From: an archaeon GW2011_AR20
GTDB lineage: Archaea > Nanobdellota > Nanobdellia > SCGC-AAA011-G17 > GW2011-AR20
NCBI GenBank assembly: GCA_000830315.1
Contig: CP010426.1
Coordinates: 60,670-124,669, forward strand
Direction: 5' to 3'
DNA length: 64,000 bases
The position numbers and the translations under genes were made by a program. Each line of letters opens with the position of its first letter. Within the stretch, counting starts at the first letter, position 1. The notes under the pieces are model-generated. The model did not search any database and was not told the origin of the DNA. It saw only the letters and a program-made list of their open reading frames with translations. Shown piece after piece: positions 3,476-24,027 of this stretch.

Positions 3476-5833
3476 ATGAAAAAATGGCTTTTAATATTTA
3501 TTGTTATGCTAGTTTCTCTTTATAATGTGGGTGCTGCGTTGCCAGATGTAAGTTTAAGTGCGAGTGCTTACGGAGACTACGTTGTCCTAAGATGGTCATA
3601 TGAAATAATAGAGCAAAGCCCTTATGGAAGTTATGGTGTTGAGCAAGGTTATTATGAAGAAGGTGGCGCTTCAACAGCCCAAAGACCGACTATAAATTAT
3701 TTCATTGCGAATCCAACATCTATATCAAACCCAAACCAATCCGTTTATCTTTCATGGTCTGTTGATCAAGCTGATTCGTGTACAGGCTCCGGTCCCGGAT
3801 TCACAGGTTCAAAAGCAGTAGGAGATGAAGTACAAAGCGTTACTCCAACCTCAACAACAAATTATACTTTAACATGTACGAATTCGGCTGGAAGTATTTC
3901 TAGGTCCATTAATATTATTGTTTCTTATGGGAGTTATGGCGGAAGTTATGGCACAACCCAAGCAATAAGAAAAATAACAAGCAATGCAGTTTTAGATAAT
4001 ATAAAAGATCTTTTCTCAAGATTAATAGATGCTATAAAAAATCTGCTTGGACTGCAGACCGCTGGTTCTGCAATAAACTACGATTTCGAGATTTATAGAA
4101 ACTCTCAATTAATCGCATCAGGTGATAAATATGAGTTCAATTGTGAAAGCAATCAATGTAGTTATAGGGATAATCGCTTAAGAAACGAAAACTACAATTA
4201 TTATGTTAAAATTAAAAACGTTGAAGGGACCGAATCAAGAAATTCTAATTCAATTAATGTAATAATAAATTTCGATAGTGGGGGCGAGACAGCTCCGAGT
4301 CCAGGTATCCCCCCTCCAAGAATAACGATAGCGAGTGTTGATGAGGATAACGATGAACCTTATGAAACAACAAACTTTATGCCGAGAATTAGTTTAAATA
4401 CAGATGAGTCTGCTAATTGTAAAATTTCTCTCGCTGACATTTCATATACAAACATGGTTCATTCATGCCCAAACAATGAGCTGAAAACAAGCCATATTTG
4501 CAATTCTCCTGAAAACTTAAGTTTGGGAGAGAAGATTCTTTATGTAGCATGCCAAGACGAATCTGGAAATTCAAACAATGAAACAAATAACAAAGAAGTT
4601 AGATTTACAATCATCAATAGAACTTCAGTAGCATCAACGAGTTTAGAGAATATAGAAGTTTATCCAAGTGCGTTTTTGATGGAAATTGGCTCTTCAAGAT
4701 TATTAAAGTTCAATGACCCGCAAGTTACTTCAGCTTATGGGACTAATGAAAGTTTAAATTATGTGTGGTCAAAAGAAGGGGTAAGCTGTAATGTATTAAA
4801 TGGAATGGTTTCTGCATTGAAAGAAGGGAATTGTAAAGTCATAATAAATAACCGCGATAGGAGTGCAAATGGGATATCTCATGTAAAAGTTATAAACAGA
4901 TCCATTTACAGTCAAATGATAGTGTTCTCCTACGATAAAAATGAATTAACCTTTAATGATAACACAACCATTCAGCTGAACTTATCAAAAAATATCAGCG
5001 GCGGGATAATAATTAAATTTTATAATACAAGTCCTGTCGGAACACCAAATAATCTAAAACTCTTGAACAAATACTTGCTGATAGAGGCAGATGATTTGAT
5101 AACAAATAACCTTAATAATGTGGTCCTATCAATGACCTATAATAAAGTCTTCTTAAACAACAATAACATAAACGAGGATTTATTAAAAACTTATTATTAT
5201 AGTGACCTAAATGATGAGTGGATAGGATATTCTAGTTCTATAGACAAGAATTCAATGCGGGTTTCTATAGGATTAAATCACTTGTCATTATTCGGCTTGT
5301 TTGGGCAAACCGAATCATCATCACAGGGAGGGGAAGGAGGGAATGCGGGGGGTGCAGGAGGAGAAGGAAGATGCATAGAACAGTGGTCATGTGGATCATG
5401 GGGTCCTTGTATAAACAACCAGCAAAGAAGAACATGCGCTGATTTAAATAGCTGCAACAACAGGAACCCAAGAATAGCAAAGCCGGTGGGATACACTTCA
5501 TGTTCCCAAGGAGATGACTTTCTACAAAATCAGCCGAGTGAAGAATCTGATGTCAGGAACATCTTTGGCGAGACTCCCCAACCATCGGAAGAAAAAAATA
5601 ATTTAATTAATTATCTAATAATATCTCTACTACTGGCAGGAGCAATAGTTTTTGTATTTAGAAAGAGAATATTCAGGAAAAAAACCGGAATTGCTGATAA
5701 TAACTTAGATGCCATAATTGGGTTAGTAAAAAGAATAAGAGCAAGAGGGTATAGTGATGATGAAATTAAGCAAAAATTGTATGACGAGGGCTTTAATCAG
5801 AAGCAGGTAGAAAAAATATTCAGGAAATTATGA
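3476..5833 (+). CDS. Large secreted cell-surface protein with N-terminal signal peptide, Gly-rich linker, Cys-rich module and C-terminal TM anchor with basic tail
   Basis: 785 aa; MKKWLLIFIVMLVSLYNVGAA signal; GGEGGNAGGAGGEG linker; CIEQWSCGSWGPC...C module; C-terminal LINYLIISLLLAGAIVFVFRKR. Confidence 0.5.
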   Translation: MKKWLLIFIVMLVSLYNVGAALPDVSLSASAYGDYVVLRWSYEIIEQSPYGSYGVEQGYYEEGGASTAQRPTINYFIANPTSISNPNQSVYLSWSVDQADSCTGSGPGFTGSKAVGDEVQSVTPTSTTNYTLTCTNSAGSISRSINIIVSYGSYGGSYGTTQAIRKITSNAVLDNIKDLFSRLIDAIKNLLGLQTAGSAINYDFEIYRNSQLIASGDKYEFNCESNQCSYRDNRLRNENYNYYVKIKNVEGTESRNSNSINVIINFDSGGETAPSPGIPPPRITIASVDEDNDEPYETTNFMPRISLNTDESANCKISLADISYTNMVHSCPNNELKTSHICNSPENLSLGEKILYVACQDESGNSNNETNNKEVRFTIINRTSVASTSLENIEVYPSAFLMEIGSSRLLKFNDPQVTSAYGTNESLNYVWSKEGVSCNVLNGMVSALKEGNCKVIINNRDRSANGISHVKVINRSIYSQMIVFSYDKNELTFNDNTTIQLNLSKNISGGIIIKFYNTSPVGTPNNLKLLNKYLLIEADDLITNNLNNVVLSMTYNKVFLNNNNINEDLLKTYYYSDLNDEWIGYSSSIDKNSMRVSIGLNHLSLFGLFGQTESSSQGGEGGNAGGAGGEGRCIEQWSCGSWGPCINNQQRRTCADLNSCNNRNPRIAKPVGYTSCSQGDDFLQNQPSEESDVRNIFGETPQPSEEKNNLINYLIISLLLAGAIVFVFRKRIFRKKTGIADNNLDAIIGLVKRIRARGYSDDEIKQKLYDEGFNQKQVEKIFRKL

Positions 5834-6276
5834 AAAAAGGTTTTATCTTTTCATTGGATTCATTTTTTGCAATAATATTATTCACATTAGTTATATTTTT
5901 GATTTATGTATTCTCAATAAATTCCTTCGGATTGAACCAGCAGTATTTTTTTTCTGAAGACTTGCTTACAACGCTTTCAAATGTAAAGATAAGCGAGCTC
6001 GATTTATCAAATTATCCCGACATAAATAGTATGGTATCATCTGGAAAAATAAATTACACAGAAGCAACAATTGTAGAACAGATAGTAAATTTCCAGCTGA
6101 ATGATGATCAGGAATCTTCAAACCTTTTCATTGACGACATATTTATCAAAGTAGCTGATGAGAGTCTAAAAACAGCCATTTTCATAGGAAATGTTAAAAT
6201 TTATGGGGCAGATCCTGAAAACGTAAAGAATTTATTGTCAAGAACAAGGTTGGCGATTGGTAAAAAAAATTCTTAA
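5830..6276 (+). CDS. Small N-terminally anchored protein, possible class-III-signal (pilin-like) protein
   Basis: 148 aa; MKKG followed by hydrophobic FIFSLDSFFAIILFTLVIFLIYVF; start overlaps upstream gene stop. Confidence 0.3.
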   Translation: MKKGFIFSLDSFFAIILFTLVIFLIYVFSINSFGLNQQYFFSEDLLTTLSNVKISELDLSNYPDINSMVSSGKINYTEATIVEQIVNFQLNDDQESSNLFIDDIFIKVADESLKTAIFIGNVKIYGADPENVKNLLSRTRLAIGKKNS

Positions 6277-6281
6277 AAAAA

Positions 6282-7223
6282 TCAGCATTCAGTCCTGTCA
6301 TAATAATCAATGTGTTGAGTATCTAATTTGAAATTGCTTGGCATTCCAAATACACAAGAACCAACAACCCCATTTAAATATTGATAATCTAAACTTGAAA
6401 GCCCGGAAGGATTTGAATAATAATTTGGATCGAGAATGCTCTCAATTCCATTCGAACTTGGTGTGAAATCCCCTTCTAATCTAACTAAAAAACTCGGTGC
6501 ATTTGAGTTTGCCCTGAAATAAACTTTTTTGATGTGATCATTAAAATCATTGATGTCTGAAAAATCACCATATGGGGTTTTTCTTATTCTTACCCCGAAT
6601 TTGCCAAGTTCTGGCTCAATTAGGTAAAATGGATCGCGATAATTTTCAACATTTAGGGTAGAGTAGATATTTGCATTGTTTATTTCCCAACTAACTTCAT
6701 TTTTGATATCACTTACTCTGTACTTAAAGTTCATGCTAACCTTCAAAGTCCATGGTGTTTCATGACTAATCGTTAAAGAATTAATTGCATTATCAACATC
6801 CTCTTGCGTATATTCAAGAGTCGCACCTTGCTGTTCTGCCAAAAGTCTTATTTCATTTAAGGTATTGTTTAATGTATAATCCAAAGAACCCTGAAACATA
6901 GATTCCTGTATCCCCCCGCCATATCTACCGTTGCTTATTACCTGTTTAAGATAATCTAACGAATCCGGCGCATAAGAATTATTTGATTCATAGTCCAGCA
7001 ATGATATAATAGCCTGATTTGAGGAGGCCCCCAGTGCATCTGGAAGATATGTTGAATTCAGGTTCTTAACAAAGCTGTTCAGAGTTTCAACTTTTACATT
7101 AACAGTCTGGATTTTAGTCTGGAATCTATTATTGACATTAATCAAAAAGATAATGATTACTATAGACAAGAGAATTACGACAATAAATGTAAATACAATC
7201 CCTTTTTTGTTCACGAAATCCAT
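6282..7223 (-). CDS. Hypothetical N-terminally membrane-anchored extracellular protein
   Basis: 313 aa; MDFVNKKG + hydrophobic helix; last gene of a 3-gene minus-strand operon (8522 to 6282). Confidence 0.4.
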   Translation of the reverse strand: MDFVNKKGIVFTFIVVILLSIVIIIFLINVNNRFQTKIQTVNVKVETLNSFVKNLNSTYLPDALGASSNQAIISLLDYESNNSYAPDSLDYLKQVISNGRYGGGIQESMFQGSLDYTLNNTLNEIRLLAEQQGATLEYTQEDVDNAINSLTISHETPWTLKVSMNFKYRVSDIKNEVSWEINNANIYSTLNVENYRDPFYLIEPELGKFGVRIRKTPYGDFSDINDFNDHIKKVYFRANSNAPSFLVRLEGDFTPSSNGIESILDPNYYSNPSGLSSLDYQYLNGVVGSCVFGMPSNFKLDTQHIDYYDRTEC

Positions 7224-8185
7224 GATTTTATCTTTAAATAAACTGTATTTAATAATTCAGAATTAAAAGGATAGCATTGATCTATACACGGGGGGTTCTC
7301 ATTGTTTAGAGTTAAGGTACTTTCATCATCATTAAAATTGCCCAAAGAGTCGAATCCATATGCCTTTATTTTAAATTCCATATTATCACATTTTCTACTG
7401 TCCCAATCAAACCGAAAGTCGTATGCGCCTGTTCTCGGGGCACTTACATCTTGGCTAAACAACAGGTTACAATTTTTTGTACCCGAGCATCTAAAAGAGC
7501 AGTAATCATTGCTAGTTGGGTTATTCATATTCACGGGCTTAAATTCATCTGTTCTTGGATCTTTTTTAAATAGATATATTTCCCCCTTAGCAACTTCTTG
7601 CAAACTTTGAACGCGGGCATTTAAGGGAATTATATTATTTGTTCCTGTTGCTGTTAAAACAACTGCCGGATTAATTTGAATGCAGTTGGTTGCTTTAATA
7701 TTGCTTGATCTTAAATCCGAGGTCGTTGCTGTAAAACATTCGGTGTCTCCTCCAGTTGATGAAACAGTATAACTAAATTTCCTTAAACAAGTTGTTTCGT
7801 CTTTTGCGCAGTTTGATGTTCTTGCTTTTTGACCGCTTAAATCAGTTCCTTCCAAAAGCTGCATCTCATCTGTTTTATCTCCACTTAAGTGGGCTATAAC
7901 AGTAATCTCAACGGTTGCTCCAGGATTTGCTTTTGCAGCTGTGATAATCTCTATGCTACCACAAGATCCACAATCAGAATCGCATGGAGAGCATTTTCCG
8001 TAACTTTGCATGTCGCAAGCACCCCAGTCACCATAAGTCTGTGGACAAAACCCATCCTTTATAAAATTACAGTCAACATCGTAGTCAGCGCATATTTGAA
8101 CCCCCGTACAAATGGCAGATTCTGCAGAGCCCATATAAAACAAGCTGATAAAAATGACCAATGAGACAATTATCGGTCCTTTCAT
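7211..8185 (-). CDS. Cysteine-rich secreted protein
   Basis: 324 aa; signal peptide MKGPIIVSLVIFISLFYMGSAESA; numerous Cys; 13-nt overlap with downstream gene. Confidence 0.4.
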   Translation of the reverse strand: MKGPIIVSLVIFISLFYMGSAESAICTGVQICADYDVDCNFIKDGFCPQTYGDWGACDMQSYGKCSPCDSDCGSCGSIEIITAAKANPGATVEITVIAHLSGDKTDEMQLLEGTDLSGQKARTSNCAKDETTCLRKFSYTVSSTGGDTECFTATTSDLRSSNIKATNCIQINPAVVLTATGTNNIIPLNARVQSLQEVAKGEIYLFKKDPRTDEFKPVNMNNPTSNDYCSFRCSGTKNCNLLFSQDVSAPRTGAYDFRFDWDSRKCDNMEFKIKAYGFDSLGNFNDDESTLTLNNENPPCIDQCYPFNSELLNTVYLKIKSWIS

Positions 8186-8186
8186 T

Positions 8187-8522
8187 TTAACACAATTCCC
8201 TTAACCCTTGATTAACTATTTTATTGCAATTTTTTAAGGCTAAATTAACTTGGTCGAGGCATGATTGTTTTGTTGCATCGGATTTTATTTCATTACATCT
8301 GTCGATATTACCTTCGGCAACTGCCAAGTTTATGGTTGATGAATAACAGCCATATAGGCATGCCTCTGTTTTGCAAGTTTCGCCGCACGATTTCTGAACA
8401 GTAGTTTCCCCGCCTAAATCGGTTTTCTCTTGAACGTTAAGATTTTTTAAGTAGCTTATAACAATAAGTACAACAACTAATGCTACCAGAAATATAATTA
8501 AGTTATTATACTTTTTATTCAA
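8187..8522 (-). CDS. Small Cys-rich membrane-anchored protein
   Basis: 111 aa; N-terminal TM helix; 8 Cys; stop abuts next gene start. Confidence 0.35.
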   Translation of the reverse strand: MNKKYNNLIIFLVALVVVLIVISYLKNLNVQEKTDLGGETTVQKSCGETCKTEACLYGCYSSTINLAVAEGNIDRCNEIKSDATKQSCLDQVNLALKNCNKIVNQGLRELC

Positions 8523-8624
8523 TATATCACCTCTAAATTTTAGTAGGTTTAGTTACTATTTAAATATTATTGTTTGGTTCAAATTACGATTAATTTATAT
8601 ATTTTTAGGTTTAATTAGATATAT

Positions 8625-12005: not shown

Positions 12006-13325
12006 ATGAAAACCTGGCAAAGATTAGCCTTATTAGGAAGCTTATTTGGAGCATTAAATCTTGGTTTTAATAGCCAAAGTAATGCACAAACGCAAACCAA
12101 GAAGGTTAGAATTGTTGATGCAATACTGAATTGTGTTGACTCATTGAGGAATGTTGCAGGAATTCCAAATTTAAAAATCACTTGGGATGGCAATGCCTAT
12201 ACAACAAATTCAGAGGGCTATGTTGATCTGGTAACTGGTGTAAAAGATGACTATGATAACCAAAACAAAGATTTCCTAAATGTTTCTTTGCAGAATAATA
12301 GTTTAAATTTTAGTTACAATGGTAACGCCAGCATAAAATTCTATGATATTTTAGGCAGGGAAATTAAATCTTATGACGATTCTGAAAAGAACATTAACTG
12401 GGATTTTACAAATAGTTCAAATCATAGAATCAATTCCGGAACTTATTTTTATGTTCTGAATAAAAATGGGAACATTAAAGCAGGAAAATTGGTATTTGGA
12501 AAAGATTTCGGGGTTTATTTGGGAAATGAAACAAATGACAAAAAAGCAAATGTTATTTTAGAAGATAGAATACTAGCTAAGACCCAAGTTTTAGAAAATC
12601 AAACTTTAAGCATAAAAGATGAGGAGATGCTAAGTACAGACGGAACAAATAATCTGGGGGAATATTTTGACATTGAAGCTAATTATTCGGGCTTGGATGA
12701 AGTTCCGGATACAATTAATATGATTCCTGTTTTGCCTTTTGAATCAGCTAATTACAGGAATATTCTGCATTTCGTTAAGTATATAACAAAAACAGACGGG
12801 ACAACCCCAAATACAAGATTGAAGCGTTTCGAACTTCCAATAAAATCTTTTAGAAATGCTTCTACTGCACCGAATTCAAACTATGTTGCTGCATTTGATT
12901 CCGCCACTTCATCGAATCATGACAATTCTTGGGAAAGCATGACCTCATTTAATCATAAAGGACATATGTTGCCAAAAATGAATTTGTTTGAGGAAGTTTT
13001 TGTTGACCCAGATACGGGAATCACACTGGATTATACGAGTAATTTCAGTCATATGATATTTGATAAAAGAGATCCCAATAACTCTCCTTTACATGCAATC
13101 GTTTACGTGGATAAAGATAACTTAAGTAATAATCTGGCAATAATTAGTGATACTAAACACGAGAACGGACACGGGTTATTTGGGACAGACGTTCATAGTT
13201 CAGACTCGAAACATGCTATGCTCGGCGGGGGGGGTTTAGTAATATCTAACGGTGAAGGTAAATCAATTAGGATAATATATTCGTTATCAAATTTGGATGA
13301 TATAAAAATATATAAAGAAGATTAA
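12006..13325 (+). CDS. Secreted protein with HExxH-type motif (possible zinc metalloprotease)
   Basis: 439 aa; signal peptide MKTWQRLALLGSLFGALNLGF; HENGH near C-terminus. Confidence 0.35.
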   Translation: MKTWQRLALLGSLFGALNLGFNSQSNAQTQTKKVRIVDAILNCVDSLRNVAGIPNLKITWDGNAYTTNSEGYVDLVTGVKDDYDNQNKDFLNVSLQNNSLNFSYNGNASIKFYDILGREIKSYDDSEKNINWDFTNSSNHRINSGTYFYVLNKNGNIKAGKLVFGKDFGVYLGNETNDKKANVILEDRILAKTQVLENQTLSIKDEEMLSTDGTNNLGEYFDIEANYSGLDEVPDTINMIPVLPFESANYRNILHFVKYITKTDGTTPNTRLKRFELPIKSFRNASTAPNSNYVAAFDSATSSNHDNSWESMTSFNHKGHMLPKMNLFEEVFVDPDTGITLDYTSNFSHMIFDKRDPNNSPLHAIVYVDKDNLSNNLAIISDTKHENGHGLFGTDVHSSDSKHAMLGGGGLVISNGEGKSIRIIYSLSNLDDIKIYKED

Positions 13326-13354: not shown

Positions 13355-13783
13355 TTATTTAATAAAATATTCTTTATGTTTGTAGGTATAATAAAATATT
13401 ATTATATTAATAATTATATCAGCCATAAGCATTACAAAACTTAGATAAACTGCTTTTGCAATAAAATTTACATCATTGCCGTCAATGGGTTTCTTTGATA
13501 CTAAAAAAACAATGGTAATAATTAAAGTATAGATTATAGAATATAACGTTGACATATAAATTACATATCTTCCGAATTTATATCTTTTATTTATACCAAA
13601 AATAATAACACCGGCTATTATAATAAATACAAGGTTTGTTAAAGTTTCGAATAAATTTTCTTTGAATAAATCAAATAAATTTAATAAAATATAAATAATA
13701 AAATACACCTTTATAAGTTTGAAACCTGCTGGTGTTCCTTGTTTATTTTTGTTAGATGATTTTTGCATTTGATTGTTATGCAA
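13355..13783 (-). CDS. Small integral membrane protein
   Basis: 142 aa with about 4 hydrophobic helices. Confidence 0.35.
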   Translation of the reverse strand: MHNNQMQKSSNKNKQGTPAGFKLIKVYFIIYILLNLFDLFKENLFETLTNLVFIIIAGVIIFGINKRYKFGRYVIYMSTLYSIIYTLIITIVFLVSKKPIDGNDVNFIAKAVYLSFVMLMADIIINIIIFYYTYKHKEYFIK

Positions 13784-13794
13784 TTTAAGATGAA

Positions 13795-15690
13795 TTAGAT
13801 TGTTTTAACAATTATGTTGCTAAACTCCCCATATTCTTTGTTACTAAAATTAGTTAAGTAACAACAAGATTGTGTGTTACCTATCCTAAAGCAATCTGGT
13901 TCATCAGAGTCAATTGCATCTTTCCAATAAGGTTGATTTTGTCCATAAAAGCTTGTTGCACTAGTATAGGGATCTCTCCATCTCGCTAAACAAGATTGAC
14001 CAGGTTCTCCGGTTGAATTTCCGACAGTTCCCTTGTAACAAGCGGCAAATGCAAATGCAACTACGCAAGTTTGAGCATCCAGATCCCAGGTAAAACCATC
14101 AGGGCAACCACATGCTCCATCAATACAATATAACCCAGAACAACATTCAGCATCGCTTGTACATCCACTTGTAAGTCCGCCTGCAAAAGTAAAACTTCCA
14201 GACAAACTGTCTGCACCATCTGGTCTAAATTCGCTTCCGACTTCGCCGTCCCAAAATGCGGCTGCTCTTGGTGTAACTGTTCTGCCACAACACGCTACGG
14301 GAACTGAAGGAATTTTCCAGTTAGTGTTGATGTTTCCGCTTGTTGACAACATTGTGCTAAGTGTTATCCCTGAAATATCACCACCGGTAAATTGAATGTC
14401 ACAACTTCCGCTTGAATCTTGCGCATCAATTTGCAATTTATCAACTTGGGGGCAATAAAGACCAGAATAACCTGCATTAACCTTAATATTCTCATCTTGT
14501 TCACATAAATCAGATGCTCCGCTAATATAAGAACAGCCAGAAATCTTATTACATTTATCTCTATTCAAACCATTACAAGAGGTTACCACACATTTGTATG
14601 ACTCACTTAATTGTTTTTTCCATTCGCATCCAGGTCGTGATCTACAATATTCTAAATCTTTAAATTGATAACAATCAATGCTTGGGGTTCCTGTACAAGA
14701 ACCTCCAACACATAAAGTACCATCCATAGAAACAGCTCCCAAATCACATTGACAATCTTCATCTACTTTATCGATTTTCCCATCACAATCGTCATCTAAA
14801 CCATTATAACATAATTCTGTTTGAGGTAAAACTTGCCCGGTACAAGAGTAAAGAAATGAGCCGGCAGAACAAGTCTGAGTTCCATCTCTACATATTCCTC
14901 TATTTCTAGTATCTAATGAACCTGTATAACAGGCTCGCACAATATTCTCATCAGAAATACCATTACAATTATTGTCAGCACCATCGCATATCTCTGGATC
15001 ATTCCTCTTATCATAATAAGAACATTGACTACCATCACACAGGTCTTCCGTACAAACATTGTTATCGTCGCATAGACTATCTTCAGCATACCCAAATATA
15101 CCGTTGTGACAAACATTACATTGGGTGTTGACTTTTATCTGACCTTCTTGACACACACAAGCACCATTATCACAAATAGGGGTTTCTCCAAAACATAAGA
15201 TGGGATCATTAGAACAAACTCCGCTTAAGCAAGAATCTGTAGTACATGAATCGTCATCTGAACAAGATTCGGCGACTTGGAATTTGGTACATCCGTTGTC
15301 AAGGCCTACACAGTTTAATGCATCGAGTCCGCTACAAGAAACAGGAGAACTTCTTTCATCTCCACATTCTCTACAATTTTGACAGGAACCACTAGAACAA
15401 ATTGTCCCTGATTCACAATAGCTAGCAAAAAGCCATTCAGTACAACCATTTGTATTAAGAATTGTATCACAAACCTCAATAACAGTAGAACTTTTACATT
15501 GAACCGAGCCATCAAAGCATGATTGGCAACTTTGGCAATATCCCGAAGATCCGGGATTGATGCATACATTACCATAACTACACTCTGAATCGGAGCTGCA
15601 TGCAGCATTTACATCATTGGAATTATAAATAGAAAAAATTGAAATAATTAAAACTAAGCAAACTAACCTAACAACCTCTTTTTTCATCAA
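13795..15690 (-). CDS. Large cysteine-rich secreted protein with repeated Cys-knot/EGF-like modules (candidate adhesin)
   Basis: 631 aa; signal peptide; very high Cys content in recurring CxxxC / DxNxC patterns. Confidence 0.5.
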   Translation of the reverse strand: MMKKEVVRLVCLVLIISIFSIYNSNDVNAACSSDSECSYGNVCINPGSSGYCQSCQSCFDGSVQCKSSTVIEVCDTILNTNGCTEWLFASYCESGTICSSGSCQNCRECGDERSSPVSCSGLDALNCVGLDNGCTKFQVAESCSDDDSCTTDSCLSGVCSNDPILCFGETPICDNGACVCQEGQIKVNTQCNVCHNGIFGYAEDSLCDDNNVCTEDLCDGSQCSYYDKRNDPEICDGADNNCNGISDENIVRACYTGSLDTRNRGICRDGTQTCSAGSFLYSCTGQVLPQTELCYNGLDDDCDGKIDKVDEDCQCDLGAVSMDGTLCVGGSCTGTPSIDCYQFKDLEYCRSRPGCEWKKQLSESYKCVVTSCNGLNRDKCNKISGCSYISGASDLCEQDENIKVNAGYSGLYCPQVDKLQIDAQDSSGSCDIQFTGGDISGITLSTMLSTSGNINTNWKIPSVPVACCGRTVTPRAAAFWDGEVGSEFRPDGADSLSGSFTFAGGLTSGCTSDAECCSGLYCIDGACGCPDGFTWDLDAQTCVVAFAFAACYKGTVGNSTGEPGQSCLARWRDPYTSATSFYGQNQPYWKDAIDSDEPDCFRIGNTQSCCYLTNFSNKEYGEFSNIIVKTI

Positions 15691-15751
15691 TTTAAATAAG
15701 AATTAAGGATATAAAAACCTTACTAAAAGAAAACCTTTTATAGTATGGTTA

Positions 15752-16297
15752 TTGTTTAATATCATGCCTGTAAATATTTCAACTGCAGTAGACAGTTTAG
15801 TTGAGCTAGTAAATAATAAAAAAAGAATTCCCTTAGAAGAAGCTGCAAAAGAATTGGGACTGCCAGAGCATATAATAAATGAGTGGGCTGTTTTCTTGGA
15901 AGAAGAGGAAATATTAACAATTGAATATCAGTTTACAACCCCTTTCTTGATAGCTAAAGGCAAAAAAACTGTGGAAGAGTCAAGGGATTATTCACAGGAC
16001 ATTGAGATATTAACCAGGCAGATAGAAATAATGCAGTCTGGCTTAAACAAGATTGTCATTAAACATGCTATTGTCATTAAAGATGTTGATGACGTCAAAA
16101 TAGCATTGACAAAAAAATTAAGCAGGGAAGATATGATTTACACACAAAAGTTTGTCTTGGATTATGAAATTAAGCAATTGCTGCATAAAGTAAGCAGATT
16201 GAAAGTCTTCAACAAAGAAAATTACGATGAGATAAATAAAGAATTTGAAAATATTAAAAGAAGAAAGCAAATATTTGATAAAAACTTGACCAGATAA
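15752..16297 (+). CDS. Hypothetical protein upstream of pilus locus
   Basis: 181 aa ORF, no recognised motif. Confidence 0.3.
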   Translation: MFNIMPVNISTAVDSLVELVNNKKRIPLEEAAKELGLPEHIINEWAVFLEEEEILTIEYQFTTPFLIAKGKKTVEESRDYSQDIEILTRQIEIMQSGLNKIVIKHAIVIKDVDDVKIALTKKLSREDMIYTQKFVLDYEIKQLLHKVSRLKVFNKENYDEINKEFENIKRRKQIFDKNLTR

Positions 16298-16382
16298 AAA
16301 TGTTAATTTTATTTTACATATTTTAAATTTTCTTAGCAGAAAGATTTATAAATGTCCCGATTATGGTACAATTGTACTAAAA

Positions 16383-16895
16383 ATGGGACAAATAAATAAA
16401 ATAGAGAACTTATTCTTTGAAAATCCGTCTAGGGAGTTTTATCTCAGGGAAATCAGCAAATTAATAAAAATACCAAAAACCACCGTTCAAAGAAAATTAA
16501 TAGATTTAAAAAATAAAGAATTGATTAATAAGCTCAAGACCAAGCCCCATCCAAGATATAGGGCGAATACAGAGAATTTCTACTATAAATACTACAAAAA
16601 AAACAGGATTATAGAGAATTTATACAAATCTAATTTAATTGAATTCTTAATTAAAGAAGCAAATCCAAGCGCTATAATTCTTTTCGGAAGTTGTGCTAAG
16701 GGAGAATATGATGCTAAAAGCGATATAGACTTATTTTTGGGGTCTAATGAATTTAGATTAGATCTAAAAAACTATGAGGAAAAATTAAAGCATAAAATAA
16801 ATATAATCTTTAAGCAAAACATAGGCGATTTCAATACGGAACTGAAGAATAATATTATAAATGGGGAAAAACTATATGGTGTTATAAGAATATGA
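16383..16895 (+). CDS. Nucleotidyltransferase-domain protein (MNT-like) with N-terminal wHTH
   Basis: 170 aa; ILFGSCAKGEYDAKSDIDLFL (GS-x9-DxD NTase signature). Confidence 0.5.
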   Translation: MGQINKIENLFFENPSREFYLREISKLIKIPKTTVQRKLIDLKNKELINKLKTKPHPRYRANTENFYYKYYKKNRIIENLYKSNLIEFLIKEANPSAIILFGSCAKGEYDAKSDIDLFLGSNEFRLDLKNYEEKLKHKINIIFKQNIGDFNTELKNNIINGEKLYGVIRI

Positions 16896-17059
16896 TAAAA
16901 GAAATCATGGATTGGGAAATTTGTTTAAAAGAACACATTAAAAATATTAGAAATAGGATTTATTACGAAGGCGTGTTTGCTAGAGAATCTTATTTAGATA
17001 AAAATGAGTTAGAATTAAACCACATTATAGAATTATTAAAAAGATTAATAAATGAATAA
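16892..17059 (+). CDS. Small ORF (55 aa) overlapping NTase gene stop (ATGA), possible cognate partner
   Basis: ATG at 16892 overlaps TGA of upstream gene; not in ORF track (<60 aa); no HEPN Rx4-6H motif seen. Confidence 0.25.
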   Translation: MIKEIMDWEICLKEHIKNIRNRIYYEGVFARESYLDKNELELNHIIELLKRLINE

Positions 17060-17109
17060 AATCTTAATAAAGCTAAATAAAAAAGAGGTGATGGCTTTTT
17101 GCTATGTAA

Positions 17110-18567
17110 ATGGTTGTAAAAGAGACATATAGCTTCTACTCTGAGAATATTCCGATAACTGTAACTATAGAGAGTACAAAGGATGAATTTGTGCTAGTCT
17201 ATAATGTAAGCATTGCAAAAATAAGCCCAAATACAGAGATTATTCTTGATAAAATAAAGCAGGAAATCTCCAGTAAGGTTAAACTTGGATTAAGTGATAT
17301 TTCGGATTTAAAAAAATCGGAATTTGTGAGGAAAAGATTTGAGGATGCAATATTATATCTGCTAAATAAATATCTTCCAACAATTTCGGATGACATTAAA
17401 AAATTTCTCACAACATATTTGATGCACAAGGCACTTGGCTTGGGGAAGATTGAATTGTTGCTTGATGATAAAAATCTTGAAGAAGTTGTTATTAATAATG
17501 CAGAAGAGCCGGTGTGGGTTTATCACCACAAGCATGGCTGGTTAAAAACAAACATAAAACTTGAGAATGAAGAGCAGGTTAAGCATTACTCGTCATTAAT
17601 TGGAAGAAGGGTCGGAAGAAGCATTTCTCTGCTTACCCCATTATTGGATGCACAATTAGAAACAGGAGACAGGGTAAATGCAACATTAAACCCCATTTCT
17701 ATAAAAGGAAACACAATTACATTCAGGAAGTTTGCAACAAAACCAATCACAATGACAGACATGATTAACCAGAAAACAATTTCCATCTCAGCTGCTTCTT
17801 TAATATGGCTGGGAATAGAATATGAGCTGAGCGCGTTAGTAACCGGGGGCACGGCGACGGGAAAAACTTCTTTCCTCGGGGCAATATGCTCTTTCTTCCA
17901 GCCAAATCAGAGGATTATCTCTGCTGAGGACACTGCTGAACTAAGACTCGCAAAATACCTGCAATGGATCCCCATGTTGACAAGACAGCCGAATGTAGAA
18001 GGAAAGGGAGAAGTTACCCTGCTCGACTTAATAGTCAATTCATTGAGGATGAGGCCGGACAGAATTGTTGTTGGTGAGATAAGAAGGCAGAGGGAAGCTG
18101 AAACCTTGTTTGAGGCAATGCATACTGGACATAGTGTTTATGCAACATTGCATGCAAATGATGTAAATGAAACAATAAACAGAATTACAAACCCGCCCCT
18201 TAATATTCCAAAAAATTTGCTTCCTGCTATTTCAATGATAATTGTAATGTACAGAAACAGAAGAACAGGAATAAGGAGAATTTACCAGATAGCTGAAATC
18301 CTGAGTAATGCAGAGCCAAATGTTTTATTGCAACTAGATTTGAGGCAGGATAAAATTTTGACTGTTAACAGATCATCAAGATTAATGCCTGAATTAGAAT
18401 TAACTACCGGATTAACGACACAGGAGATTAACCAAAATTTGAAGGAAAAATCATTGATCTTAACATGGTTAGCAAAGAAAAATATCAATGAGGTAAATGA
18501 CATCGGAAAGGTAATTGCTACTTATTACACAAACAAAAATGCCGTTTTAAACCTGCTTAAAAAATGA
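17110..18567 (+). CDS. Type II/IV secretion-family ATPase (archaeal pilus/archaellum assembly ATPase, FlaI/PilB/VirB11-like)
   Basis: 485 aa; Walker A GTATGKTS; Asp-box and His-box region ...IVVGEIRRQREAETLFEAMHTGHSVYATLHAN. Confidence 0.8.
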   Translation: MVVKETYSFYSENIPITVTIESTKDEFVLVYNVSIAKISPNTEIILDKIKQEISSKVKLGLSDISDLKKSEFVRKRFEDAILYLLNKYLPTISDDIKKFLTTYLMHKALGLGKIELLLDDKNLEEVVINNAEEPVWVYHHKHGWLKTNIKLENEEQVKHYSSLIGRRVGRSISLLTPLLDAQLETGDRVNATLNPISIKGNTITFRKFATKPITMTDMINQKTISISAASLIWLGIEYELSALVTGGTATGKTSFLGAICSFFQPNQRIISAEDTAELRLAKYLQWIPMLTRQPNVEGKGEVTLLDLIVNSLRMRPDRIVVGEIRRQREAETLFEAMHTGHSVYATLHANDVNETINRITNPPLNIPKNLLPAISMIIVMYRNRRTGIRRIYQIAEILSNAEPNVLLQLDLRQDKILTVNRSSRLMPELELTTGLTTQEINQNLKEKSLILTWLAKKNINEVNDIGKVIATYYTNKNAVLNLLKK

Positions 18568-19364
18568 TAATTCCAATTTTAGCAAAAAAATTTCCTTATT
18601 TGAAGATAGGGCTTATGCAAGCTGATATAAATCAGACTCCCGAGCAGTTTATTAAAAAAAGTCTTATTACAAGTTTAATTGTAAGCATAACATTAACGCT
18701 TGCTTCAATAATGGTTTTTTCAAGGCTGGAGGTTAGTTTATTAATCCCCTTATTATTGTTCCCGGTTATTTATATTGCCGTGTTTTTCTTTTTCATGCAT
18801 TCGCCAACTGCAAAATCAAATAAAGTCGTCCGTGAAATAGACCGTGAGATTGTTTATGCCGGAAGATTTTTATTAATTGAACTAAGCGCGGGAATTCCAC
18901 TGTTTGATTCAATAAGAAATGTCTCTTACGCCTATCCGACGATTGGAAGATACTTTAAAAAAATCGTTGATAAAGTTGAAACAGGAATGCCGATAGAGCA
19001 GGCGATAAACGAAGTTATAGAAATCACTCCAAGCGATAATTTCAGGAAAGTTTTATTTCAGATTCTCAATTCAATGAAAACCGGGGGAGATGTAAGCAAG
19101 GCCCTGGAAAGCATAACAGAGCAGATTTCCAAGGAACAATTAATTAAAATCAAAGAATATGGGAAAAAATTAAACCCCATGGTTTTGTTTTATTTGTTAA
19201 TTGCTGTTATACTTCCTAGTTTGGGGGTTACAATACTTTCTTTGATGTCAACGTTTACTGGATTAACATTATCGTTGTCAAATTTAATAGGAATTAACTT
19301 TGCCATAGGTGTATTACAGTTTTCATTTTTATCAATAATCGGAAATCTGAGGAAAGGTGTGTAA
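18564..19364 (+). CDS. Pilus platform membrane protein (T2SS-F / TadB-TadC / FlaJ-like), part 1
   Basis: 266 aa polytopic membrane protein immediately downstream of and overlapping the ATPase gene. Confidence 0.55.
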   Translation: MIIPILAKKFPYLKIGLMQADINQTPEQFIKKSLITSLIVSITLTLASIMVFSRLEVSLLIPLLLFPVIYIAVFFFFMHSPTAKSNKVVREIDREIVYAGRFLLIELSAGIPLFDSIRNVSYAYPTIGRYFKKIVDKVETGMPIEQAINEVIEITPSDNFRKVLFQILNSMKTGGDVSKALESITEQISKEQLIKIKEYGKKLNPMVLFYLLIAVILPSLGVTILSLMSTFTGLTLSLSNLIGINFAIGVLQFSFLSIIGNLRKGV

Positions 19365-20359
19365 TGGAATCAGGATTGATAATAAAAGCCAGAAAAAAGT
19401 TTGAAAATGAATTGATAAAATCCGACATTAAGATTGATGTAAATAAACTATTAATTCAGTCTTCCATAGGAACATTTGTTTTAAGCATAATAATATTATT
19501 GTTTTTCAGGACCCAGTTAAAGCTTGCTGCTAATTTTACAAGCTCGTTAATAAGCTTTTATATGCTATCTTTGCTAATTGCCTTGGCCATCGCAATATTT
19601 TTTATTTATTCCTGGATAACTTTAAAGAAAATAAAAAGAAAAAAGGAAATTGAAAATGTTCTTGCAGATTACTTGCAGTTGGTTGCTACAAACTTGAATG
19701 CGGGGATGCCTATTGACCAGGCAATGTGGTATGCTGTAAGAGAAAGATTCGGAATTTTGGCGAATGAAGTTGAGGTAATTGCAAGAAAAGTTACCAGTGG
19801 TTATGATTTGGAGCAGGCATTAATGGAATTCACAGATAAATATGATTCTGATTTGCTAAAAAAAAGTATGGTATTATTAGTTGAAGGATTGAAATCAGGC
19901 GGGGAACTGGCAGGTTTAGTGAGCAAGATATCCTGGAATATCAAAGAAACACAGGTGCTTGAAAGAGAAATAAGTGCAGAGGTAACGACCTATGTAATCT
20001 TTATAACATTAGCTGCGATTATAATAGCCCCATTTTTATATGCATTATCCCACAGGATCATTATTTTAATGAGTGAAATACTTGCAAGCATTAATGTTGA
20101 AAGCATAGCTGGTCTGGGAAACAATTTACCGTTAAGTTTTTCCGGCGGCGAAGCAATTTCTCCAAGCGATTTCAAGACATTTGTTTTTATCAATCTGGGG
20201 ATAAGCGCTGTCTTAGCGGCCATGATAATCTCAACAATCAAAAAAGGAAACATTAAGTCTGGGTTAAAATCAATTCCGATTTTTTTAGCAGTGAGCATAA
20301 TTATATTTTTAATAGCATCTATAATACTAACTGCGGTATTCAAGAACATAACAGTATAG
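19364..20359 (+). CDS. Pilus platform membrane protein (T2SS-F / TadB-TadC / FlaJ-like), part 2
   Basis: 331 aa polytopic membrane protein; start overlaps previous stop. Confidence 0.55.
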   Translation: MESGLIIKARKKFENELIKSDIKIDVNKLLIQSSIGTFVLSIIILLFFRTQLKLAANFTSSLISFYMLSLLIALAIAIFFIYSWITLKKIKRKKEIENVLADYLQLVATNLNAGMPIDQAMWYAVRERFGILANEVEVIARKVTSGYDLEQALMEFTDKYDSDLLKKSMVLLVEGLKSGGELAGLVSKISWNIKETQVLEREISAEVTTYVIFITLAAIIIAPFLYALSHRIIILMSEILASINVESIAGLGNNLPLSFSGGEAISPSDFKTFVFINLGISAVLAAMIISTIKKGNIKSGLKSIPIFLAVSIIIFLIASIILTAVFKNITV

Positions 20360-20393
20360 CAAGATTTATTAATAACCAAAATTCAACATTATT

Positions 20394-20843
20394 ATGAAAA
20401 GAGCTCAAACTGCTATGGAGTTTTTGATGACATATGGTTGGGCGATATTAATAATTTTAGCGGTTATTGCAATATTATTCAGCTTAGATGTATTTAATCC
20501 AAAAGTTCCAAATAATTGTGTTTCTGTTTCTCCTGTAACATGCTACGATATCAAATTAGCAGACGATGGTTTTATGCAGATTACCTTAAGCAGTTCAGAC
20601 ACAGACACGGCAACATTAACAAGCATAACATTAACCAATCCAAGCACAGCACCGGGCTCATGCATACCTTCTCCAAATACAATTCCTGTTGATGCAAAAT
20701 ATACACTAAATTGCGATTTAAGCACTGACGTTTTAACATCTGGAACAAGGTTTGAAGGAAATGCAAATATAGGTTACAGGTTATCCGGCGGCACAATTGA
20801 TCATGGAATTGTTGTTAAATTCTCCGGCACCATAGAGGATTAA
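20394..20843 (+). CDS. Archaeal type IV pilin-like protein with class III signal peptide
   Basis: 149 aa; N-terminus MKRAQTAMEFLMTYGWAILIILAVIAILF (the QTAMEFLMTYGWAIL class-III/DUF361-type motif). Confidence 0.7.
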   Translation: MKRAQTAMEFLMTYGWAILIILAVIAILFSLDVFNPKVPNNCVSVSPVTCYDIKLADDGFMQITLSSSDTDTATLTSITLTNPSTAPGSCIPSPNTIPVDAKYTLNCDLSTDVLTSGTRFEGNANIGYRLSGGTIDHGIVVKFSGTIED

Positions 20844-20916
20844 TAGGCTAAAAACAATAGATTTATATATTATTAAATAGTATTAATTTTATTAGGATAA
20901 TATAAAGAGGTGGTAA

Positions 20917-21402
20917 TTGATGCATAAAAATCATAATAAAAAAGCTCAAACTGCTATGGAGTTTTTGATGACATATGGTTGGGCGATATTAATAGTTCTA
21001 ATTGTCTTGGCTGTATTATTCTCATTTGGTGTGTTTAACCCCGGAACAGGACAGAATACTTGTAGAAGCGATGATACTGGTGTTTTATGTAGAGATGTAA
21101 AATTAGATGACAGCGATAATCAATTACAATTGCGTTTAAGAGCATCTGGCGTAAATACTGTTACATATGTCGCTGCAAGTGCGATAACATTAAATGGAGT
21201 TGCATGTGCAGTTACAAATGATGGCGATGGAAATGCTGATGGAACAATGACAAATGTAAAAACACAAGATGTTACAGTTACATGTGCTTCAACATTAGCA
21301 ACAGGAGATGCGTTCAGTGGTAAATTTGTAGTAAGCGCAACAAAAGTTGGTGGATTAGCTCACGATGTTATACTAACCATTGAAGGAACAGCAGAAGCTT
21401 AA
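20917..21402 (+). CDS. Archaeal type IV pilin-like protein with class III signal peptide
   Basis: 161 aa; KKAQTAMEFLMTYGWAILIVLIVLAVLF. Confidence 0.7.
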   Translation: MMHKNHNKKAQTAMEFLMTYGWAILIVLIVLAVLFSFGVFNPGTGQNTCRSDDTGVLCRDVKLDDSDNQLQLRLRASGVNTVTYVAASAITLNGVACAVTNDGDGNADGTMTNVKTQDVTVTCASTLATGDAFSGKFVVSATKVGGLAHDVILTIEGTAEA

Positions 21403-21457
21403 TTTTCTTTTTTCTTTATTTAATTATATTTAAATATTAGTTAATTTTTATATAATC

Positions 21458-21937
21458 ATGAGAAAAGCCCAGACAGCAATGGAATTTCTAATGACATATA
21501 GCTGGGTCGCAATAATAATGCTAATTGTATTGGCTGCTTTATTTGCTTTAGGGGTATTTAACCCTAACATAAACAAAGGAATTTGCAATTCAGAAGTTCC
21601 ATTTAGCTGTACAGATATCAAATTAGGTGAAAATACTGATTCATTGTCATTATCCCTCAGGGCATCTGGTGTAAAATATATCGGTTATAACATAAATAAT
21701 GCTGTAAAAATAAATGATGTAAATTGCCCGATAACAGATGATGGGGACCCTGCTCCAAATAATTTGGACGAGAAAATGGTTAATGCAAAAACAGCTTATG
21801 TTGAAGTTAAATGTGATGCGGGTGCTCTGAACTTAATCAAAGACGATGAATTTAGTGGGAGCATAATTTTGGATTACACTGAAATTAATGGGTTAATGCA
21901 TAATGCAGAAATAACATTTAATGGGCTTGTTGAATAA
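21458..21937 (+). CDS. Archaeal type IV pilin-like protein with class III signal peptide
   Basis: 159 aa; MRKAQTAMEFLMTYSWVAIIMLIVLAALF. Confidence 0.7.
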   Translation: MRKAQTAMEFLMTYSWVAIIMLIVLAALFALGVFNPNINKGICNSEVPFSCTDIKLGENTDSLSLSLRASGVKYIGYNINNAVKINDVNCPITDDGDPAPNNLDEKMVNAKTAYVEVKCDAGALNLIKDDEFSGSIILDYTEINGLMHNAEITFNGLVE

Positions 21938-22224
21938 TGAAATTCAAGTTTTATAACAAAAATTTTGGATTAATGTTTAGAAATATTAAAAATAATGCTG
22001 CTGTCTTAAAAGATTACAATAATGAATATTTGCATACTTTTTTTGTTTTTTATCCGATTGATATTGTATTTCTAGATAGCAAATTCAAAGTTATTAAGAT
22101 TAAAAGAAGGGTTAAACCGTTTACATTAAAAATCATGGGAGAAAAAAAGGCAAAATATGTTTTGGAGTTCAGAACAGGAAATACAAAAAATATAAAAATA
22201 GGGAAAAAAATAAAACTACGATGA
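21937..22224 (+). CDS. Small basic hypothetical protein
   Basis: 95 aa; start overlaps pilin stop, stop overlaps next gene. Confidence 0.3.
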   Translation: MKFKFYNKNFGLMFRNIKNNAAVLKDYNNEYLHTFFVFYPIDIVFLDSKFKVIKIKRRVKPFTLKIMGEKKAKYVLEFRTGNTKNIKIGKKIKLR

Positions 22225-23558
22225 TAGAAGTTTTTGCAATTGGTGGCTATAGCGAAGTTGGAAAAAACATGACTGCCATTAAAGTAGATGATGAAATAAT
22301 CATTCTTGATATGGGGCTTTACCTGCCTGCTGTTTTGAAGTATGAAGAAGGGGATCCTCGTGAATTAACAACAAAGGATTTAATTAAAATAGGGGCTATT
22401 CCAGATGATGAAGTTCTTCACAAGTATAAAAATCAGGTCAAGGCAATTGTTCTAGGACACTGCCATCTGGATCATATTGGCGCGGCTCCTTTTTTAGCCA
22501 GGCATTATGACTGTCCTGTAATCGGAACAAGATACACAATTGAAGTCCTAAAAAAATTGCTTGAGGAGCATGAATATAAGCTAGAAGGGAGGCTAAAACC
22601 GATAAATTCAGGCACTCATCTTGAAATCTCTGAAAACTTAAAGATAGAATTCATTAACATCACACATTCGACACCGCAAACAGTTTTGATTGCAATCCAT
22701 ACAAAATATGGAATTATTTTTTATGCCAATGATTTCAAGCTAGATAATTATCCTGTAATTGGGGCTAAACCAAACTATGATAGATTAAAGCATTTGGCTG
22801 AAAAAGAAAATGTTTTATTGTTAATCATGGATTCTTTGTATTCAAATTCAGAAGGAAAAACCCCGAGCGAAAAAGTCGCGAAAGAAATGCTTAAGGATGT
22901 TTTGCTCGGAACAAAAAGCGAAGGCAATTTAATCATCATTACAACGTTTTCAAGTCACATCGCGAGATTAAAGAGCATAATTGAATTCGGCAAAAACTTG
23001 AATAGAAAAATTGTATTCCTTGGAAGAAGCTTGTTTAATTATGTCAAGGCTGCTGAAGCTTCAGGTATCGTTAATTTCAGCAAGAATGTTGAAATTATTG
23101 GATACAGGTCTTTGGTGAAAAAGAAATTACGGGAGATAGAAAAACAGGGGAGAAGCAATTATCTTATTGTTTGTACAGGTAATCAAGGCGAGCCAGACGC
23201 AATATTAACTAAAATAGCAAATAAAAAAGACATACAATTTGAATTACTGCCGAACGATGTTATAATTTTTTCATGCAGAACAATTCCTACGGAGATGACA
23301 ATTAAGAATCGTGAAAATTTGGAAAAAAGACTTAAGCAGTTCCATGCAAGAATTTTCAAGGAAGTTCATGTTTCCGGGCATGCATTTCATGAAGATCATA
23401 GGGAAATAATTAATTTGCTAAAGCCCAAGCATATCCTGCCCATACATGGCGATCACGAGATTACGAAAGGATTGGAAATTTTGGCCCTGGAACTAGGATA
23501 TAAATTAAACAAGACGGTCCATCTTGGCGAGGATGGAAAAATAATAGAGATTAATTAG
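22221..23558 (+). CDS. Metallo-beta-lactamase / beta-CASP ribonuclease (archaeal RNase J-like)
   Basis: 445 aa; HCHLDHIGA (HxHxDH) motif; size and layout of archaeal RNase J. Confidence 0.65.
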   Translation: MIEVFAIGGYSEVGKNMTAIKVDDEIIILDMGLYLPAVLKYEEGDPRELTTKDLIKIGAIPDDEVLHKYKNQVKAIVLGHCHLDHIGAAPFLARHYDCPVIGTRYTIEVLKKLLEEHEYKLEGRLKPINSGTHLEISENLKIEFINITHSTPQTVLIAIHTKYGIIFYANDFKLDNYPVIGAKPNYDRLKHLAEKENVLLLIMDSLYSNSEGKTPSEKVAKEMLKDVLLGTKSEGNLIIITTFSSHIARLKSIIEFGKNLNRKIVFLGRSLFNYVKAAEASGIVNFSKNVEIIGYRSLVKKKLREIEKQGRSNYLIVCTGNQGEPDAILTKIANKKDIQFELLPNDVIIFSCRTIPTEMTIKNRENLEKRLKQFHARIFKEVHVSGHAFHEDHREIINLLKPKHILPIHGDHEITKGLEILALELGYKLNKTVHLGEDGKIIEIN

Positions 23559-24027
23559 TTTTAAACTGCAATAAGCTCGAGCTTGTTTCTTCTAAAATTT
23601 TTCCGCTTTTTGTGTCCACTTTAATGTTAATTAAATTAAAATCAGTTGTTACCAAACTGATATTCCACAATAATTTTGAATCTAAGCTCTGGATTATGAT
23701 TATTTCTTTTGTAAAATTCTTATTTTTGTATTTTGGCTTGACTAATTTCACGACATTATCAAAACCGAATTTAACGTCATCCAGGTTTATCTCTTCAATT
23801 TTTTTAGATGCGGAGAATATTTTTTGATTATCTGTAAACTTTATACTTTTATCAACCAGAAAAGTGGATATCTTGTTTTTCTTCGGCAAATAATAATCAA
23901 ACTGCCACCCGCTTGACTTCTCTTCGTCTTTTAGCAGAAAAACGCTGCATAAGTAGGCATTTTTATGCTTATTTTTCCAGGATTTGAATTTTTCATCCTT
24001 CATTAACTGTTGGTATTCTTTAATCAT
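23551..24027 (-). CDS. Hypothetical protein
   Basis: 158 aa; 4-nt overlap with thrS start. Confidence 0.3.
   Translation of the reverse strand: MIKEYQQLMKDEKFKSWKNKHKNAYLCSVFLLKDEEKSSGWQFDYYLPKKNKISTFLVDKSIKFTDNQKIFSASKKIEEINLDDVKFGFDNVVKLVKPKYKNKNFTKEIIIIQSLDSKLLWNISLVTTDFNLINIKVDTKSGKILEETSSSLLQFKTN

Follow-up and report, generated by a model that had tools for sequence, protein, structure and literature searches.

Woesearchaeota and other DPANN archaea are believed to spend their lives in attachment to other cells, and their surface molecules are almost entirely "hypothetical proteins". We analysed one protein with this annotation, AJF62244.1 / QT11_C0001G0086 of the tiny groundwater archaeon GW2011_AR20, which is encoded by a Cys-rich gene within a stretch of 64,000 nucleotides (contig CP010426.1, positions 60,670 to 124,669; hereafter the window). 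The analysis turned the "hypothetical protein" into a domain map with one widespread prokaryotic unit, made of Cys residues and loops of predicted Ca2+-binding type, and two previously undescribed families, designated M1 and M2. These two families are new here, as is a conserved pairing of M2 genes with a gene encoding a secreted HExxH protein, which in AR20 lies beside a type IV pilus operon (Table 1). AR20 represents the first complete Woesearchaeota (DPANN) genome; a symbiotic lifestyle has been proposed for the organism, and a role of its FlaI/FlaJ-type (pilus/archaellum) genes in motility or adhesion has been discussed (PMC8421398, PMC5994134).

Table 1 Features of the Cys-rich gene, its neighbours and the related loci (window coordinates unless a locus is named; residues are counted from the TTG codon)
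Feature	Residues	Coordinates	Strand	Description
Whole open reading frame		13795..15690	-	uninterrupted, 631 codons from TTG; stop 13795-13797
Signal peptide	1-29	15604..15690	-	n: MMKKEVVR; h: LVCLVLIISIFSI; c: YNSNDVNA↓A
N-terminal Cys-module region	30-230	15001..15603	-	31 Cys, 15 %
Complete MopE-type unit	231-312	14755..15000	-	acidic loop ICDGADNNCNGISDE + 4-Cys module + linker + acidic loop LCYNGLDDDCDGKIDKVDE
Post-MopE Cys modules	313-395	14506..14754	-	11 Cys; C-x7/8-C-x5-GC-[WY]-type motifs
M1	396-509	14164..14505	-	previously undescribed ~105-aa all-beta family
M2	510-631	13798..14163	-	previously undescribed C-terminal 12-Cys family
TATA-like box TTTTTATAT		15708..15716	-	~25 nt upstream of ATG, within 61-bp divergent intergenic region
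HExxH protein		12006..13325	+	convergent neighbour, secreted, 439 aa, unannotated family
Membrane protein		13355..13783	-	142 aa (137 aa in ENA), multi-pass, 12 nt downstream of Cys-rich gene
Archaeal type IV pilus-like operon		15752..21937	+	divergent from Cys-rich gene
HExxH family member, locus L002		7097-7975
HExxH family member, locus L003		408-1745
HExxH family member, locus L004		7120-8982
HExxH family member, locus L009		1905-3194

The open reading frame (ORF) of the original prediction runs without interruption, although its true start is more likely the second codon, an ATG at 15687 that gives a protein of 630 aa and is used by every database copy. The gene is real and not a spurious ORF, since homologues were found for three parts of the protein, its GC content at third codon positions (GC3) is typical of the genome (0.23; genome range 0.21-0.36), and near-identical population variants (identity of at least 99 %) exist. 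The overall GC content of the gene is raised through codon position 2, which mirrors the Cys/Gly/Ser/Ala-rich composition of the protein. The codon usage is native and therefore gives no sign of recent transfer: recent horizontal transfer was ruled out by the genome-typical GC3, and a phage origin was ruled out because searches of PHROGs and viral contigs returned no match. The position of the TATA-like box, so shortly before the ATG, suggests that the gene is transcribed as a leaderless archaeal mRNA.

The encoded protein begins with a Sec-type signal peptide of classical n/h/c layout with a VNA↓A cleavage-type site, and the only hydrophobic stretch of the whole protein is found there, at residues 1-27. 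The signal peptide of the original prediction is thus confirmed, and so is the extreme Cys richness: the protein contains 68 Cys (10.8 %), against a median of 0.68 % among the 59 long ORFs of the window and a next highest value of 6.1 %. In the mature chain, the 67 remaining Cys are spaced far more regularly than in shuffled sequence, with distances of 4-8 dominant, and CC, CxC and CxxC are rarer than in shuffles. The protein is also strongly acidic (D+E 83 vs K+R 35). Two other explanations of the Cys residues were tried and rejected. A lipoprotein was ruled out, as Cys11, at a distance of 10 residues from the start, is preceded by Val at -1, and an Fe-S reading of the CxxCxxC strings was ruled out, as there was no Fer4 match and no CxxxCP follows.

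When the whole protein was searched against Pfam, the sole family above threshold was PF11617 ("Cu-binding_MopE, putative metal-binding motif"), by a small margin (28.4 vs 27 bits) and in two stretches (residues 232-248 and 294-312); the precomputed annotation calls the match "faint". A search of 5.8 billion proteins gave 273 matches, all confined to residues ~231-312, the one part of the protein that has broad homologues, where the two acidic loops enclose a 4-Cys module (CYTG..T...GICRDGTQTC.AGSF..C) followed by the linker QVLPQTE. The matches are "MopE-related" or "putative metal-binding motif" proteins, mostly of Myxococcota and also of the candidate phyla radiation (CPR; Uhrbacteria) and DPANN (Woesearchaeota, Nanoarchaeia). 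An alignment of 118 segments (~62 aa) yielded the unit consensus P..E.CDG.D.DC.G..DE.....CY.G...T...G.C..G.QTC..G.W..C.G...P..E.C..G.D.DCDG..DE, and at most of the 60 %-consensus positions the AR20 protein has the same residue or its Asp/Asn equivalent, the departures including Phe for Trp and Leu/Tyr-Asn in the second loop. Identity of the unit to its homologues is 40-55 % (40-48 % in alignment A6). The AR20 protein has one complete unit between its two loops and no tandem array; typical homologues reach 150-310 bits on 12 % of the query span because of their many tandem units. PF11617 occurs in secreted proteins, and the Cys pattern was not found to belong to an intracellular metal-binding family.

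The name of this family raises the question of whether the protein could scavenge copper or another metal as MopE/CorA of methanotrophs does, to which the above-threshold match with its two loops would be suited. We consider this very unlikely. At E <= 1, neither the whole protein (phmmer; only a chance CRISP fragment, E = 0.13) nor the unit profile (hmmsearch) matched MopE or any other chain among the PDB sequences, and the unit profile had no significant Pfam match either. MopE reportedly (Helland et al. 2008) binds Cu via two His and a Trp-derived kynurenine, whereas the mature AR20 protein contains only one His. Asp and Asn, hard-ligand residues of Ca2+ type, abound in both loops, which are predicted to bind Ca2+, by analogy with known Ca2+ loops. 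PF11617 itself covers just a short loop and lacks specificity (PMC6189053).

Small Cys modules flank the MopE-type unit. On its N-terminal side, residues 31-52 make up a "CSSDSEC" knot, followed by the tandem ~54-aa repeats A and A' (50-103 and 101-154; z = 7), each opening with CQxCxxC, and by two Dicty_CTDC-like "CxDxxxCTxDxC" modules (143-166 and 207-235) that are mutually related (z = 5.2); all repeat z-scores come from Smith-Waterman scoring against shuffles. The CSSDSEC module is also similar to a CTSDAEC module at residues 510-529 (z = 4.2). Motif repetition behind the unit is weak (z = 2.1), and a BLAST self-comparison of the protein gave zero off-diagonal high-scoring segment pairs. 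The repeats described in the original prediction are therefore real at the level of modules, but the motifs by which it named them are mostly wrong: C-x3-C, said to recur, has zero occurrences against ~7 expected by chance, and D-x-N-x-C and C-T-E-D-L-C, likewise said to recur, occur once each, at residues 209 and 213.

These modules had been taken for cystine-knot or epidermal growth factor (EGF)-like modules extending throughout the protein, and the protein for eukaryote-like. In this reading, the gene would encode a eukaryote-like EGF or cystine-knot adhesion protein, possibly acquired from eukaryotes. Several weak likenesses point that way. The PROSITE pattern EGF_2 matches once, at residues 527-542 (~0.03 expected by chance, judged by shuffles), and marks one possible EGF-like hairpin; EB (16.8 bits vs 24.3, E = 0.007, residues 507-536), Dickkopf_N and Dicty_CTDC (PF00526; 16.8 bits vs 27) are sub-threshold in Pfam, and cEGF matches two M2 members. 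In Foldseek, a structural model of M2 aligned with factor IX/X EGF domains over 22-30 residues (E 1.5-3, probability < 0.2), and the PF11617 loop resembles the Cys-rich motif of teneurin (PMC3278476). A wider set of searches argues against it. With the whole protein and E <= 10, Pfam gave no EGF family apart from EB and no thrombospondin (TSP), DSL, low-density lipoprotein receptor class A (LDLa) or knot family, and NCBIfam gave nothing; neither database matched a cystine-knot family (knottins, growth-factor knots). The PROSITE patterns EGF_1 (in an approximated form), EGF_CA and LDLRA_1 have no match in the protein, and a D-x-D-x-D-G-x-x-D string is present once, with no match to Pfam Ldl_recept_a or TSP_3. 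The single above-threshold family is prokaryotic, as are all significant homologues, the nearest being Myxococcota, CPR and DPANN, and the codon usage is native. The eukaryote-like EGF reading is thus largely refuted, and we rate its chances as very small.

Residues 397-631 had no match among 120 homologues retrieved with the whole protein. A HMMER scan of 1.84 billion representatives split this part into M1 and M2, which are independent families, and AlphaFold2 (AF2) models were obtained for the two domains, folded separately. M1, with the signature C..G......G.C....Q.DA....C.I...G..GI....W..P..P..C.G..V....G.F., occurs in ~60 proteins of up to 2898 aa, in 1-4 copies each. The host proteins also bear dockerin, CARDB, PKD, Big_7 and right-handed beta-helix modules, and one of them sits in a genome with an archaeal-type leucyl-tRNA synthetase. 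The M1 model is an all-beta sandwich similar to immunoglobulin (Ig), fibronectin type III (FN3) and carbohydrate-binding module (CBM) folds (predicted local distance difference test (pLDDT) 86, predicted template-modelling score (pTM) 0.79). The M1 profile gave nothing significant against Pfam and PDB sequences, and no matches in a word-indexed protein search whose index is too coarse for the family. M1 can be described as a module of Ig/CBM-like type from the giant surface proteins of archaea.

M2 is a much smaller family, with ~17 clusters in the same scan. It opens with the EGF_2-pattern hairpin CGCPDGFTWDLDAQTC (527-542) and has the core signature C...W..P....YW.DA....DCF...N..ACC....EYG.Y. 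In every relative (15 proteins) it lies at the extreme C-terminus, and its hosts are mostly short secreted proteins, many of 123-290 aa. Both relatives from taxonomically assigned genomes belong to metagenome-assembled genomes (MAGs) of Woesearchaeota; the others lie on metagenomic contigs. None of the 16 M2 members matched Por_Secre_tail or CHU_C in Pfam, the M2 profile gave nothing significant against Pfam and PDB sequences, and the word-indexed protein search gave 5 matches, its index again being too coarse. The statement that the protein is unusual for archaea holds only in part: other Woesearchaeota/Nanoarchaeia MAGs encode MopE-related proteins, and M1 and M2 both occur in archaeal genomes.

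Two side observations concern M2 proteins. The population variant P0149 lacks 16 residues, WDLDAQTCVVAFAFAA (534-549; window ~14044-14091), at the junction of the EGF-like hairpin and M2; Cys542 is lost with them, which leaves 66 Cys against 67 in the mature reference. The indel may be real or may have arisen in assembly. A ~45-aa repeat, "C..C..E..(I/V)F.LY...DSH(V/I)....Y..K(V/I)CC" (the DSHV repeat), is present three times in the N-terminal part of short secreted M2 proteins, at L002 5533-6315 (+) and in P0152, P0163, P0171, P0184, P0190, P0197 and P0207. The DSHV repeat is undescribed, and a three-fold lectin-like domain is possible.

Related M2 loci were found with a 4-sequence M2 alignment, and in 5 of the 6 distinct M2 loci the M2 gene adjoins a gene of the HExxH family. 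The member encoded in the window, downstream of the Cys-rich gene and beyond the membrane protein gene, has a beta-sandwich at ~87-166 like the C-terminal domain (CTD) of the type IX secretion system (T9SS) (PDB 8glj_D, E = 8.5e-4; Por_Secre_tail/CHU_C weak), and the C-terminal HExxH is invariant across the family, which is probably a Zn-metallopeptidase. In L002, the locus of a related Woesearchaeote, a gene for a 260-aa M2 protein occupies the position that separates the pilus leader gene from the HExxH gene. The M2 of this protein is 51 % identical to that of AR20 (E = 2e-32), and its N-terminal part, the three DSHV repeats, is unrelated. A gene split or fusion was ruled out here, as the L002 ORF upstream of the M2 gene is unrelated to the AR20 protein. 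M2 and HExxH genes are again neighbours in L003, in L009 and in L004/L005; the last are more distant, their HExxH protein being 29 % identical to that of the window (E = 8e-18). In L006, the gene at 4751-8551 (+) encodes a 1266-aa protein with no Pfam annotation and an M2-like C-terminus (tblastn E = 2e-5), and a second M2 gene (178 aa) follows 1.5 kb downstream; with two copies in L006, duplication of M2 inside a single locus is evidently possible. Within 12 kb, L006 contains no HExxH gene.

This linkage could mean that M2 is a C-terminal sorting, processing or docking tag for interchangeable cargoes, served and perhaps cleaved by the HExxH protein, and thereby an archaeal functional analogue of a CTD-and-protease display system such as T9SS CTD/PorU. 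The invariably terminal position of M2, its unrelated cargoes (Cys modules with M1 in AR20, the three DSHV repeats in L002, the 1266-aa protein in L006), the adjacency and invariance of the HExxH and the T9SS-CTD-like sandwich of the partner are all what such a tag would predict. Set against these, M2 is unlike any known sorting domain, HExxH catalysis is putative (best peptidase match E = 0.6), L006 has its two M2 copies with no HExxH gene nearby, and the family is small. On balance we think a dedicated tag rather unlikely. In its widest form, a Woesearchaeota-specific M2 display or docking system, the HExxH protein would recognise, process or tether M2 beside the type IV pilus machinery; this is a speculative proposal that we hold to be unlikely, and if true, M2 display would add a new archaeal pathway by which a DPANN cell that depends on a host equips its surface with proteins.

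The surroundings of the Cys-rich gene form a surface-structure island, with a pilus ATPase, PilC-type genes, pilins and other secreted proteins. The divergent operon is complete and contains a 181-aa leader gene, a helix-turn-helix (HTH)-nucleotidyltransferase gene, a T2SSE ATPase gene, two T2SSF genes and three pilin genes, the pilins having class-III signals K(R/K)AQTAMEFLMTYGWA and 4 Cys each. The HTH(TrmB)-nucleotidyltransferase gene (16383-16895), between the leader gene and the ATPase gene, looks inserted since the syntenic operon of L002 lacks it. On the other side, the multi-pass membrane protein gene is probably co-transcribed with the Cys-rich gene; it is not conserved in the related loci.

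Given the constant M2, the varied N-termini and the adjacency of the HExxH gene, we therefore interpret the protein as a surface binding protein with M2 docking. That it is an exported modular surface or adhesin-like protein is the interpretation we favour, with a little better than even confidence. The protein would be exported by the Sec route and its signal peptide then removed, after which ~365 residues of Cys-bridged modules, including the MopE-type unit, could form an elongated, protease-resistant stalk. Disulfides would rigidify this stalk, and its Asp/Asn-rich C-D-G-x-D-N-x-C-x-G-x-x-D-E loops would take up Ca2+. The stalk would bear the Ig/CBM-like M1, and the lineage-specific M2 would close the chain. 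M2 may act as a shared module for docking or processing, directed at the envelope of the cell itself or at the HExxH partner, and the variable N-terminal part would give reach and specificity. Retention at the surface, adhesion, and ligand binding by M1 and/or M2 are likewise expected under this interpretation. The original proposal of a host-interaction adhesin is retained to this extent: extracellular binding is plausible from the M1 sandwich and the pilus/surface island. The symbiotic lifestyle proposed for AR20, with its pilus or archaellum genes linked to adhesion, also speaks for the surface reading.

Several observations weigh against this interpretation. The number of Cys in the mature chain is odd (67), N-glycosylation sequons number 2 against ~6 expected, unlike what is typical of archaeal surface proteins with heavy glycosylation, and AR20 stems from an acetate-amended (anoxic) aquifer, in which the formation of disulfides outside the cell cannot be taken for granted. 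The AF2 model of M2 is of moderate quality (pLDDT 73, pTM 0.58) and has no structural neighbour. The M2-HExxH loci are for the most part those of fairly close relatives, and inheritance of synteny may account for some of the linkage. A search for anchor signals found no recognisable C-terminal transmembrane (TM) helix, PGF-CTERM or lipobox, and because of this the protein could simply be released. It might then be an effector, such as a disulfide-rich toxin, an antimicrobial or a protease inhibitor, acting with or against the HExxH protease; many of the short M2 proteins do look like small secreted Cys-rich effectors, and the pairing of the gene with a putative metalloprotease would suit this role as well. 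In the searches, however, the protein was unlike known toxins or inhibitors, and an Ig/CBM-like M1 on a long modular stalk is commoner in surface proteins, which makes a released effector improbable in our view. The surface or adhesin-like protein thus remains the reading that we prefer.

Other genes of the window and of the related loci gave a number of side observations. The window contains further ORFs for secreted or pilin-like proteins at 3.4-8.2 kb. Among them, the gene at 7211-8185 (-) encodes another secreted protein rich in Cys (324 aa, 19 Cys, 5.9 %); it had no Pfam match, and orthologues of it occur in L003 (31 % identity, E = 9e-43) and L009. Beside it, the ORFs at 6282-7223 (-) and 5830-6276 (+) have pilin-like hydrophobic N-termini. 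Exoproteins rich in disulfides seem to be characteristic of the AR20 lineage. The window also encodes a threonyl-tRNA synthetase (ThrRS) of TIGR00418 type (697 bits, vs 216 bits, below cut-off, for the archaeal PRK03991), an RNase J of the MG423 subfamily and an RtcB that matches the C-terminal part of the "intein-containing RtcB" profile; the coordinates of the ThrRS, RNase J and RtcB genes are 24024-25727 (-), 22221-23558 (+) and 46915-48063 (-). In L004/L005, the contig with the distant M2/HExxH pair bears a CBASS-like cluster (L004 12017-17016, L005 9468-14467) of two SMODS/DncV-like nucleotidyltransferases, E2-CBASS and a patatin, and in addition a DNA methylase/HNH/Vsr module, within ~10 kb.

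Taken together, the protein belongs to the many modular, Cys-rich proteins that prokaryotes secrete, as an interesting but not extraordinary member of this broad class. Its analysis corrects the unsupported view of it as a "eukaryote-like EGF adhesin" and offers the M2-HExxH gene pair as a candidate for surface display and host contact. Like the EGF-like, LDLa, thrombospondin type 3 (TSP3) and teneurin modules of eukaryotes, its Cys modules would be small extracellular modules of disulfide-bonded type, and its acidic C-D-G-x-D-N-x-C-x-G-x-x-D-E loops look like the Ca2+ sites of LDLa and TSP3. This likeness is confined to the loop; beyond the one EGF_2 hairpin there is no Pfam or PROSITE match at the domain level, and common descent is unsupported. 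MopE/CorA of methanotrophs belong to another protein family (PMC6189053); what the AR20 protein shares with them is only the short loop C.DG.DN.C.G..D by which PF11617 is defined, with no homology outside it.

Among C-terminal sorting systems, M2 resembles the T9SS CTD (Por_Secre_tail) in being strictly C-terminal on varied cargoes and in its link to a putative protease, which itself has a CTD-like sandwich; M2 shares neither sequence nor fold with that domain, and the analogy is positional only. It differs from the archaeal PGF-CTERM in having no TM helix of that type. A close correspondence is that with the MopE-related repeat proteins, which are large, secreted and Cys-rich and share with the AR20 protein both the unit and the flanking CTDC-like modules, although typical members carry many tandem units where this protein carries one. 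The large modular surface proteins of DPANN, CPR and further prokaryotes, in which Ig-like, CARDB, PKD and dockerin modules are combined, provide another parallel, as it is with exactly such modules that M1 co-occurs.

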